NCBI GenBank assembly: GCA_963751345.1
Contig: CAVVUS010000014.1
Location: 32,001-96,000, forward strand
Direction of reading: 5' to 3'
Origin: an uncultured Chloroflexia bacterium
GTDB lineage: Bacteria; Chloroflexota; Anaerolineae; B4-G1; SLSP01
Length of the DNA stretch: 64,000 nucleotides
Shown: positions 61,596 to 64,000 of the stretch, piece by piece
Layout of the letters: each line of letters begins with the position of its first letter
How positions within the stretch are numbered: the first letter of the stretch is position 1
Made by a program: the position numbers and the translations under genes
The notes under the pieces: model-generated
Database searches by the model: none
Seen by the model: the letters and a program-made list of their open reading frames with translations, nothing else
Told to the model about the DNA's origin: nothing

Positions 61596-64000
61596 TCAAT
61601 TGTCGTGGATTGGCACCCCCACCAGCATCCGGCTCTCCACGTCGACCAGCGGATCGACCTCACCGGCTGCCGCGGCCCGGGCGAAGACGAGGCCGGGGTA
61701 TTTTGCCCTCAACGCCCGCGTCAGCACGCTGAAGCTCTTGGTCACATTTCGCTCGCGGAAGGTCGCGCCCATCTGCTCCCACTGAGTCAAGATACCGGCC
61801 AGCCCCCGTCGCGCACCCGCGACGCAGGCGAACAACTCCTCAGGCGTCAACCCCTCGCTGTAGCCATGCCGCACGATGACAACACGGCCATGCTCGTCGA
61901 CCACGGGGCCGCGCCCCGCCACGAGCCACGCCATCTGCTCCAGTCCTGCGCCGCGCGCCTTGATCATCAGGATCTGCGGCCCAAGGTCGGCGGCCGTGGT
62001 GTCCGTCATGGCAGCTAACGCTTCTTGAACGGCCTCTCCATACATCTGCCACAACGCCGAATCCGTTGAGTCGGGCCGAGAGGGGAGCGGTGTGGTCTCC
62101 CCGACGAAGGGGCTCAGGGACGCGCCAGAGACTTTGACCGTCTCGAACCCACGCTGCATCAGTCGCTCGACAGCCAGCATCGCCGCACCCACGCTCTCCT
62201 CCCCCGCTCCCCTTGGAAGCAGCTTGGAGAGTGCGTCGGTCACGGTGGCAGCCGTGACAAAACCGCCGGAAGTGTTGACCGGCTGCCCGACGATCTCCGA
62301 GATCTCCGCCAGCCCCGCCGGATCGAGGCTCAGCTTCGCCAGCCCCCAGAGCGCATCCAGCGCGGGCACCAACGAGGCAAGCAGCCCGGGATCGCGCATC
62401 AGATGGCCGGCGACGGAGAGTCGCTCCCCGGCTTCCTGCTGGGCCGCTTCCGTGATAGGCAGGAAGACGGCGGCCTGGTCGCCGTCGAAGTCGGCATCCA
62501 ACCACCTGCACAGTGCAGGATGGAGGTGAAGCGCGTCATCCGGAACCCGGACGGGATGGAACGCCAGGAGTGCGGTGGGTGTCAGGGTCGGCGCGCGGTT
62601 GATGTAGACCCACGAGTGGGCCATCACGGCGTCAAGCACCTGCGAGGCGCGCTCGCTCCTGGCTGGGACGGCCTTCCCGTCGCCGGTCTCCCGTACGACG
62701 AGGGGACCAAAAAGCGCCCACGCCATCTCCTCGGGCATGCCGATCTGTTCCAGCGTCAGCTCGGCGGCGGGCGCCAGCACCGTGCGGGCACTGAAGAGCT
62801 CGCGGGCGCCGAGCCGTAACTGGACCGGCGTGAGGAGCGCGTCGAAGAGGGCACGGACGTGGCGTTCGAGCTGCGCGGTCGCGTCATCTACCAAGGTCTT
62901 GGGCGTCTGTGCGGCGAGCATACGCCTCACCCTGTCGTTGGCCTCGACCACCGCGCGATAGAGCCGCGGGAGCTCGTCCGACGCCTCCCACCAGCCTCCG
63001 GGCGGGAAGAGTACCTCCCTGAGGCCACCAACACGTTCCCTCTCGCCCGGATCGCCGATCTCGGTCAGGCGACGCTCGGGCAGCCACGGATGGGGGACCG
63101 GTCGCGCCAGCTTCAGAGCATCCTCCTGTGGCGGCGCGAAACGGAACGCCAGGCCGTTCTCCCCCAGCTCTGCCTCGATCCCCGCGACCCGAAGCCGGTC
63201 GGCCAGCTCCGCCAACAGTGGGGTCGGCGGAGGGGCCTGGGCCACAGGACCGGCGGCCAGCCGCTCTGCCAGCGTGCCGGCATCCTGCCCGCCCACTGCC
63301 GGGTGTTCAGATTCTCGCGGATGATCTCAAAGGCGCCCAGATCCCGCAGCATGAAGGTCTCCATCTCGCCCGTGCGCTGGCCCCATCGCTCTCCCGTCAG
63401 GACCAAGCGTCACGCAGCTTGTCCTTGGCGAGATGGTACAACCGCCCCCAGTAGACCCAGCCGACGGTGCTCGGCGCGTCGAGCGGCGGGCCATCCTTGC
63501 CCTGCGTGAGCGTCACCATGCCCGACTCGGGCAATCCGGCAGCGACCAGGCGCGCGCGAAGCTCATCCGCCGAAGGCGCACCAAAGGGCGGTACGATCGC
63601 CGGGTTCGCCTCGGCCTTCGCGACGCTGCCCAGGACCGCCTCGCGGATCTGTCCGAAGTTCATCCGCCGGTGCAGGTTGGCGAAGTTGAAGACCAGGTCG
63701 ACCGGCGTGCCATCGGGAAGATGCGGCATCCGGTCGTCGGGCAGGATCTGGCCGACCACCCCCTTCGTCCCGTGGCGATTGCTCATCTTGTCGCCGATCC
63801 GGAGCGCATAGGGGGTGTCGAACCGCCGCGCGCACGACTCGCTGACGACGATGGCATCCTCGTACGTCCCCGGCCCCCAGGAGACAAAGGCCGTGAGCAG
63901 GTTGCGACCGGCCCAGAAGTCCGGCGACAGCAGGGCGTCCGGCTCGTTGCCGGTCTGAACCCACGCGGGCTCCGGCATCTGCTGCACGATCCACTGCCTC
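61596..64000 (-). CDS. Miniaturised, divergent RNA polymerase beta-beta' fusion-like protein (5' part outside window; frameshifts near 63400 and 63300)
   Basis: beta motifs YEDAIVVSE, GDKMSNRHGTKG, MPHLPDGTPVD, RMNFGQ, HLAKDK, GQRTGEME; beta' motifs LYRAVV, NRAPTL, DADFDGDQ (DADFDGD at 62478-62498), EGLT...GARRGL. Confidence 0.85.

Follow-up and report, generated by a model that had tools for sequence, protein, structure and literature searches.

A beta::beta' fusion gene behind an ECF sigma factor gene

At the far end of a 64,000-nucleotide window from the genome of an uncultured Chloroflexia bacterium (assembly GCA_963751345.1, contig CAVVUS010000014.1, positions 32,001 to 96,000; G000:C14:32001-96000 in our labels, G000 being the window's own genome), the minus strand carries a gene related to both large subunits of bacterial RNA polymerase and preceded by a gene for an extracytoplasmic function (ECF) sigma factor. 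The locus extends beyond the window and was followed into a fetched continuation, L003, whose coordinates equal the window coordinates minus 60000. On the minus strand of L003, the order of elements is the ECF sigma gene, an open reading frame (ORF) of 175 amino acids without a Pfam match, a beta-like ORF of 325 amino acids (P0003), and a beta'-like ORF, P0001 (Table 1). P0001 is the longest ORF over positions 61596 to 61900, the span covered by an initial annotation of this DNA; that span corresponds to P0001 residues 467 to 566 plus the stop codon, and the peptides quoted in the annotation are indeed present in the translation. Pfam domain RNA_pol_Rpb1_2 was recognized in P0001 (E 3.7e-20), together with a weak, partial match to Rpb1_1. 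The frame upstream of it, which runs off the window end (P0002), contains Rpb2 domain 6 (E 2.5e-40), and P0003 contains Rpb2_6 (E 5.5e-40) as well as Rpb2_3.

P0001 is not a standalone beta' gene but the last piece of a beta::beta' fusion of approximately 1050 amino acids. In three genomes of the same genus (G015, G019, and G009), the corresponding region forms one open frame of 1016 to 1091 codons, the copy in G009 being cut by a contig end; two of these congeners provide intact single-ORF orthologues, P0006 (1056 amino acids) and P0007 (1041 amino acids). When P0006 was compared with L003 by tblastn, its residues 1 to 121, 123 to 443, 450 to 481, and 487 to 1054 were found to be colinear on the DNA, in three different frames, with P0001 accounting for the last of these segments. 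Reading of the DNA confirmed that the GQxxGExE motif lies in a third frame, between the beta-like ORF and P0001. In this assembly, the gene is thus interrupted at three frameshift sites, two of which fall at about 63296-63300 and 63405-63414 and the third at L003 4377-4383, beyond the window. The initial annotation, which had recognized a beta' protein here, was right as far as homology is concerned, since the similarity to beta' is far beyond chance (Rpb1_2, see above; rpoC, E 1.7e-32); the ORF itself, however, is a fragment of the fusion, and the annotation had missed the fusion, the frameshifts, and the sigma-linked two-gene cassette to which the gene belongs.

Table 1. Elements of the cassette in the window and in its continuation L003. 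Motif coordinates were derived by hand from the translation, tblastn matches, and model helices.
Feature	Position	Strand	Basis
Beta'-like piece of fusion gene (P0001, 566 amino acids plus stop)	61596..63296	-	ORF list, translation, Pfam, tblastn
Conserved 42-residue C-terminal tail, beta' C-terminal region (region H)	61608..61733	-	Invariant columns, structural alignment
10-residue linker	61734..61763	-	hhalign, structural alignment, tail lengths of relatives
Bridge helix (P0001 485-511 = P0006 976-1002)	61764..61844	-	AF2-model helix, hhalign
DFDGD catalytic motif, beta' double-psi barrel (P0001 269-273)	62478..62492	-	Translation, family alignment
Clamp coiled-coil (P0001 about 108-154)	62835..62975	-	Pfam Rpb1_1 positions 230-278; model helices 592-612 and 617-638
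Third-frame piece with beta C-terminal GQxxGExE motif (P0006 450-481)	63299..63394	-	tblastn, DNA reading
Beta-like piece (P0003, 325 amino acids) with beta barrel and GDK..RHG.KG motif	63397..64000, on to L003 4374	-	Pfam, tblastn
N-terminal piece of fusion, beyond window	L003 4383-4745	-	tblastn
ECF sigma gene, beyond window	L003 4742-5362	-	Pfam, NCBIfam
Promoter of sigma gene, beyond window	L003 5381-5406	-	Family-wide promoter motif

A bacterial-type core without a trigger loop

The fold of the intact protein was predicted with AlphaFold2 (AF2) from an alignment of 82 family members, yielding a model of P0006 with a predicted local distance difference test score (pLDDT) of 91.4 and a predicted template modeling score (pTM) of 0.89. 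The beta half (residues 1 to 530) could be aligned with bacterial beta over approximately 521 residues (Z about 30, root mean square deviation [rmsd] 2.7 A), and this alignment spans the whole bacterial beta chain; its sequence identity to bacterial beta, 30 to 32%, exceeds that to Rpb2 or archaeal B in the same type of structural alignment (21 to 27%). The beta' half, folded alone (pLDDT 87.3), aligned over about 488 residues with E. coli beta' residues 16 to 1359 (Z 28, rmsd 5.2 to 5.5 A). In keeping with a bacterial affinity, the best viral structure found with Foldseek, among matches to giant-virus and phage polymerases, had an E value of 2.3e-16, versus 4.9e-23 for the best bacterial one.

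Comparison of the family profile with beta chains in the PDB (E 1.7e-70) and with rpoC of the same genome (hhalign, E 1.7e-32, 391 columns, P0006 594-1002 to rpoC 470-977) shows which modules have been kept. On the beta side, these are the N-terminal conserved regions (weakly), the fork and region D, regions E, F, H, and I, and the C-terminus; the beta lobes have no counterpart (chain residues about 160 to 447 are unmatched), nor does the flap, the FED and GDK motifs lying about 9 profile positions apart, compared to 137 residues in chain 8i23_C. On the beta' side, the clamp coiled-coil, switch 2, the DFDGD barrel, the funnel, and the F-loop are covered, and the match reaches halfway into the bridge helix; gaps fall at the rudder and the rim helices. 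All in all, the beta lobes, beta flap, beta' Zn finger, rudder, most of the lid, rim helices, trigger loop, and jaw are lost, and the protein, as modeled, is a naturally pared-down bacterial RNA polymerase core contained in one chain of approximately 1050 residues. The hallmarks of the two-double-psi-barrel core were all found, namely, the DFDGD barrel, a beta barrel with GDK...K and the ED pair, and the bridge helix.

The central claim of the initial annotation, that no trigger loop is recognizable and that the bridge helix joins almost directly to the beta' C-terminus, was borne out. The domain that holds both the bridge helix and the trigger loop is Rpb1 domain 5, and Pfam found no match to it (Rpb1_5) in P0001. 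Only the N-terminal half of the model's bridge helix aligns with the canonical rpoC bridge helix, the match ending in the middle of it, at rpoC 977. Downstream of the helix follow about 10 residues, then the 42-residue tail with its seven invariant columns (within P0006 1013-1053 in the 82-sequence alignment), and then the C-terminus. Approximately 400 rpoC residues (977 to 1386), including the trigger-loop motif, are without a counterpart in P0001 and P0006, so that the short linker takes the place of the C-terminal half of the bridge helix, the trigger loop, the jaw, and their neighbors. The tail by itself matched rpoC 1386-1408 only weakly (hhalign, E 0.32, 23 columns); it is assigned to the beta' C-terminal region because the structural alignment of the beta' half, in which the last residue of the folded half is aligned, extends to E. 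coli beta' 1359.

No equivalent of the trigger loop, the finding that the initial annotation had named as fatal to its claim, turned up in relatives. The distance from the GAR motif of the bridge helix to the C-terminus is 68 to 84 residues in all 82 aligned relatives, and each of the 65 full-length cluster representatives (see below) measures 943 to 1101 amino acids, none being long enough for a hidden trigger loop. Two places where a substitute might reside were considered and rejected. A loop elsewhere in the chain, for which the initial annotation had suggested structure prediction, is not apparent: since approximately 521 and 488 of 530 residues in the two halves have canonical counterparts, no spare stretch is left to stand in, and the sole long low-confidence stretch of the model (567 to 589) lies between the beta and beta' parts. 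Supply in trans by a neighboring gene, likewise raised there, is not supported: the sigma gene is the only conserved neighbor, and G000 contains no second Rpb1_5 domain, its sole match being rpoC. The absence of the trigger loop is therefore a family trait and not a sequence error.

The active site itself is well preserved. Across the 82 aligned family members in which residue conservation was counted, the three aspartates and the glycine of DFDGD are invariant, as are the arginines of RHG and MxRQ, while 80 members keep the lysine of the beta-side GDK motif and 79 have D or E at the Asp position of the ED pair; the copy in the window retains both beta-barrel lysines. All five pairwise comparisons gave ratios of nonsynonymous to synonymous substitution rates (Ka/Ks) of 0.18 to 0.24, indicative of purifying selection. 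Because the catalytic residues are kept and Ka/Ks is about 0.2, these patterns suggest that the protein is a functional nucleotidyl transferase whose periphery is somewhat relaxed. For the same residues, a nucleic acid clamp without catalysis, one of the options listed in the initial annotation, is disfavored (DFDGD aspartates in 82/82, GDK lysine in 80/82).

Sigma partner, promoter, and distribution

The gene immediately ahead of the fusion encodes a sigma factor consisting of regions 2 and 4 only (Pfam Sigma70_r2, E 2.2e-16; Sigma70_r4_2, E 5.3e-13), which passes the model of the ECF superfamily, TIGR02937, with 108.5 bits against a cutoff of 42.9 but reaches no equivalog-level NCBIfam model. 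Among 80 loci examined, 5 lacked flanking sequence; 73 of the remaining 75 have a co-oriented ECF sigma gene as their immediate upstream neighbor, the exceptions being L067, with the sigma gene 1 kb away, and L075, in which it was not found. It is the sole neighbor conserved across phyla, and an anti-sigma gene is not among the conserved neighbors of the cassette. The two genes are tightly packed: in G000, the sigma stop overlaps the polymerase start (ATGA), and in about 30 of 61 loci, the sigma stop lies at most 6 nucleotides from the first aligned polymerase codon. As a separate observation, in the sigma linker between regions 2 and 4, a stretch of acidic residues precedes a P.W..D.....P motif that is nearly invariant. 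Conserved ECF sigma linkers enter the active-site cleft in solved holoenzymes, and this motif may be of importance to an enzyme that has no trigger loop.

Upstream of the sigma gene, a bipartite promoter, TGAAC-N16-GTGTC, was found in 66 of 71 loci, with a spacer of 16 nucleotides in 62 of these 66. Its usual form is TGAACyTTT...cGGTGTC; a short leader, which contains a Shine-Dalgarno-like GAGG, then leads up to the start codon. From this layout, the sigma start in G000 was placed at residue 18 of P0005 (L003 5362). The best word pair, TGAAC plus TGTC, occurs in 67 of the 71 upstream regions, compared to at most 6 for any pair in shuffled sequences. The promoter is conserved across phyla and is present in essentially one copy per genome. 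With a strict pattern, we found 5 sites in G000 (0 in the reversed control) and 25 in five complete genomes (11 in the control), with one extended form in G000 and one in each of the five, namely, the site of the operon itself. The additional sites were rejected as members of a regulon, as they look random, and the one other extended-form candidate, in Dictyobacter, is located inside, and antisense to, a large gene. To judge from these sequence patterns, the visible regulon would be the cassette itself.

A search of 5.8 billion proteins yielded at least 120 matches; those listed are 857 to 1067 amino acids long, all contain Rpb2_6 and Rpb1_2, and the named proteins among them are called hypothetical or carry plain domain names only. 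A scan with one genome per species identified 337 stretches encoding such a protein, of which the best 80 are the basis of the locus counts given here. Within Chloroflexota, these 80 loci belong to Anaerolineae, Ktedonobacteria, Caldilineales, and Herpetosiphonaceae; the others come from Poribacteria, Latescibacterota, Planctomycetota, Hydrogenedentota, Armatimonadota, Gemmatimonas, and a verrucomicrobial metagenome-assembled genome. An open frame of at least 990 codons is present in 66 of the 80 (a count that includes L079, where the frame picked is another gene), while 9 are cut by contig ends and 5 are interrupted. The cassette is accessory, being found in 5 of 22 genomes of the genus and 4 of 301 sampled genomes of the class, as well as in 22 of 121 sampled genomes in the phylum of one Poribacteria carrier.

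Among the best 150 hits of a profile search against 1.84 billion cluster representatives, 65 are 943 to 1101 amino acids long and match nearly all end to end, 78 are shorter pieces, and seven, of 1613 to 2522 amino acids, match in 5 to 7 stretches. We take the latter to represent fused beta-beta' proteins. None of them scores above 432 bits, versus more than 800 for full-length members, and this gap in length and score sets the family apart as discrete. Separately, the ESM Atlas contains, near P0006, further clusters of metagenomic origin made up of fused beta-beta' proteins of 1221 to 1787 amino acids, some with Rpb1 domain 5, and one such cluster is named for an inorganic pyrophosphatase domain.

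Possible modes of action and relation to known polymerases

The reading that we favor, with a probability of roughly 45%, is that of a self-contained, sigma-coupled minimal RNA polymerase lacking a trigger loop, with putative sigma binding and predicted catalysis. The ECF sigma factor and the fusion protein would be produced from one operon under the TGAAC-N16-GTGTC promoter, sigma would dock through its region 2 on the retained clamp coiled-coil, and the two proteins would together form a compact, orthogonal holoenzyme that makes RNA on DNA by the usual two-metal chemistry without the aid of a trigger loop. The clamp coiled-coil is the canonical docking site for sigma region 2. In the family, its Asn604 never varies, Arg606 is found in 78 and Arg609 in 80 of 82 members, and hhalign pairs these three residues with N, R, and R in the canonical helix, positions that presumably contact sigma region 2. 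Docking at this site is suggested because the coiled-coil and these residues have been retained even though most peripheral modules have been shed. A predicted complex of sigma with the beta' half scored 0.12 against a mark of 0.32, a value that gives no verdict either way on binding. In the boldest version of this reading, which we hold to be only slightly less probable, the cassette, an ECF sigma factor plus one 115-kDa chain, would constitute the smallest sigma-dependent RNA polymerase of the cellular type, one that transcribes itself from one promoter, seats its sigma factor without a flap, synthesizes RNA without a trigger loop, and is patchily distributed over at least eight phylum-level lineages.

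As to the properties of such an enzyme, YonO, the single-chain RNA polymerase of Bacillus prophage SPbeta, offers an analogy. According to its description (PMC5467207), YonO lacks trigger-loop homology but catalyzes phosphodiester bond formation with the efficiency of the multisubunit enzyme; it makes more errors and does not cleave RNA. The initial annotation had proposed a slow or low-fidelity enzyme or one of altered chemistry (RNA cleavage among other examples). Slowness is not implied by the missing trigger loop, since YonO is efficient without one; by the same analogy, the best available expectation for the minimal enzyme would be lower fidelity and a lack of intrinsic or Gre-assisted cleavage, the latter strengthened by the loss of the Gre-binding rim helices.

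Several observations weigh against the sigma-coupled polymerase. The flap, the canonical seat of sigma region 4 (PMC7824862), is absent from the protein, and the 16-nucleotide spacer is the geometry expected for an ECF sigma factor acting on the ordinary host polymerase. With the strict pattern, no second convincing copy of the promoter was found in G000 or the five complete genomes, so that no regulon is visible. In the active site, only 68 of 82 members have K at the position of the second barrel lysine, the NRAPT arginine is kept in 72, and the Glu of the ED pair in just 43. The interrupted copies and the indel density of the window copy, both described below, belong here as well. The main rival, rather unlikely in our estimate, draws on the first three of these points: the sigma factor would serve only the host RNA polymerase, as an autoregulated activator of the operon (hence the canonical spacing in 62 of 66 sites, the missing flap, and the operon's own promoter being the only recognizable copy per genome), and the minimal polymerase would work sigma-free like YonO, sigma-independent single-chain two-barrel enzymes being on record (PMC5467207). 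Its template or product might then be a special one, such as primer-like or short RNAs, RNA-templated synthesis, or single-stranded DNA. This rival leaves unexplained why the coiled-coil with its invariant or near-invariant N, R, and R was kept while neighboring modules were shed, and why the two genes are almost never apart (73/75) and often translationally coupled, an association exceeding what an activator and its target need. Under a further, minor rival, the protein would not be a polymerase at all but a pseudo-core that buffers its sigma factor or a decoy for RNA polymerase inhibitors or phage proteins. The position downstream of an ECF sigma gene is usually taken by an anti-sigma gene. 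Here, the fusion gene immediately follows an autoregulated ECF sigma gene, stop and start often overlapping, a conserved anti-sigma gene is lacking, the protein has retained the sigma-docking coiled-coil, and no regulon is seen, all of which would suit a sink. We nevertheless consider this role improbable, because the catalytic residues are conserved: DFDGD, GDK, RHG, and the NTP (nucleoside triphosphate)-contacting arginine vary little or not at all from phylum to phylum, a Ka/Ks of about 0.2 indicates purifying selection on all of the 1000-residue core, and a sigma sink needs neither two intact barrels nor a funnel nor an F-loop.

A separate matter, compatible with any reading of the family's function, is whether the three frameshift sites in the window copy are real. 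DNA alignment with three congeners revealed five single-base indels specific to G000, none of them in a long homopolymer: two additional bases at about L003 4383, a single additional one at about 3414 and another at about 3406, and one missing base at about 3300. Five such changes within 1.1 kb, when rpoB has a single one over 3.9 kb and rpoC has none over 4.4 kb, would fit a recent pseudogene. So would the accessory distribution of the gene and the existence of interrupted copies elsewhere (L019, L068, L083, L085, and L071), one of them in an isolate: in Dictyobacter kobayashii, the only cultured isolate among the loci, about 40 codons around the NRAPT motif are out of frame, with two stop codons (L071 8001-11051). 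Either gene loss occurs in this family or sequencing errors are common. However, rpoB of the same assembly, a housekeeping gene, is frameshifted as well: one extra base in a similar, nonhomopolymer context (contig C10, L102 2865-6771) splits it into overlapping ORFs of 722 and 624 amino acids, versus a single frame of 1300 to 1302 amino acids in the sister genome G002 and in G015 and G019. On this ground, and given their restriction to G000, the three sites are likely to be assembly errors, and real frameshifts in a recent pseudogene are less likely. Nor does Ka/Ks between G000 and G002 (0.195 overall, 0.17 in the part that holds the frameshifts) exceed the range of 0.18 to 0.24 between intact copies, and a glycoside hydrolase gene nearby is likewise split. 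Short-read contigs of related strains (approximately 94% identical, from three soil runs of one study, each with a share of words of at most 0.10) show compensating differences at exactly the indel sites of G000 and hence a continuous frame, which holds for those strains only and says nothing on the reality of the indels in G000 itself.

Three side observations concern split genes. The glycoside hydrolase gene just mentioned, of family GH92 (L003 7041-9369, plus strand), consists of two overlapping ORFs of 461 and 326 amino acids with Pfam matches that continue one another, probably another frameshift of the assembly. The G002 copy of the fusion gene (L016) has a single extra base of its own, at about orthologue residue 790-803, and falls into two pieces. 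Finally, the interrupted copies L068, L083, and L085 come from records with contigs named in the same "contig_N" style.

Relative to bacterial RpoB and RpoC, the fusion has the same order of conserved regions and the same catalytic residues, with beta preceding beta' as in RpoBC fusions, but it is about one third of their combined size and is an accessory paralogue, encoded alongside separate rpoB and rpoC genes (rpoC: P0127, 1469 amino acids). None of the curated models assigns it to either subunit: it scored 172 bits against a cutoff of 801 for rpoB (TIGR02013), 119 against 963.5 for rpoC (TIGR02386), and 175 against 4632 and 165 against 5372 for the fused rpoBC models NF011417 and NF007172. 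The protein is of bacterial beta/beta' descent and yet not classed as RpoB or RpoC, since the modules that define these subunits (flap and trigger loop) are absent and its scores fall far short of the curated cutoffs.

YonO is likewise one chain of approximately 100 kDa with two barrels and no trigger-loop homology (PMC5467207). It reportedly has only a few active-site residues in common with cellular polymerases and stands nearer to RNA-dependent enzymes (PMC2919709), whereas the minimal polymerase can be aligned with bacterial beta and beta' along some 1000 residues, and its family occurs on the chromosomes of many phyla in association with a sigma gene; the likeness, drawn from the description of YonO, is functional and architectural only. 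The virus-like element (VLE) of yeast cytoplasmic linear plasmids encodes another beta::beta' fusion of about 1000 residues, K2ORF6p, with K2ORF7p as its partner. In PMC6211774, the lid, rudder, and rim helices of K2ORF6p are reported to be likely missing, but the trigger helices and loop are kept (legend to Fig. 6 of that paper), unlike in the minimal polymerase, and the beta' C-terminal regions reside on the second, small subunit instead of on the same chain. Additionally, the VLE enzyme is of viral or eukaryotic affinity and has no sigma factor, while the minimal polymerase is bacterial type and sigma linked. The single-chain polymerases of phages and of RNA interference (RNAi), namely, QDE-1, crAss-like gp66, and P23-45 gp64 and gp96, also have a minimal two-barrel core with a bridge helix; what differs in the minimal polymerase is that only some 10 residues separate the bridge helix from the C-terminal region. 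As for the sigma gene, autoregulated ECF operons similarly combine a sigma factor of regions 2 and 4 with a bipartite promoter upstream of its own gene, but the constant partner here is a polymerase-like protein and not an anti-sigma factor.

A term search of the main text and one supplement of the ECF reclassification paper (PMC7826278) found no Rpb1/Rpb2 partner domain, and a similar search of PMC11515920 found no description of the family. Neither protein matched the PADLOC library of antiphage defense at E 0.001; NCBIfam, beyond the subthreshold rpoB and rpoC matches, offered nothing for the polymerase, and PHROGs contained only phage beta- and beta'-like families. The family is thus undescribed in the curated libraries and full-text literature searched, a search outside which a possibly relevant study (Iyer and Aravind 2012, J Struct Biol 179:299) lies, and a sigma-linked, bacterial-type, single-chain minimal polymerase appears to be without earlier description. 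Cellular RNA polymerases are regarded as having the trigger loop, flap, lobes, and jaw as integral parts. A conserved bacterial-type enzyme that is under purifying selection and retains its own sigma factor but has none of these modules would bear on the irreducible core for sigma-dependent transcription, on the positioning of sigma without a flap, and on how far catalysis and fidelity depend on the trigger loop. If the sigma-coupled reading is true, the family would be a natural deletion experiment that defines the minimal bacterial transcription core, and it would provide a compact, orthogonal set of polymerase, sigma factor, and promoter, albeit from a cassette that is accessory, patchily distributed, and without a visible regulon beyond itself.

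Finally, the part of the window adjoining the cassette (57457 to 61538) encodes an HlyD-type membrane-fusion protein on the minus strand and an OmpR-type response regulator and a HAMP histidine kinase on the plus strand. The response regulator and kinase genes are convergent with the polymerase gene, and this neighborhood is syntenic in G002 but not kept across the family.

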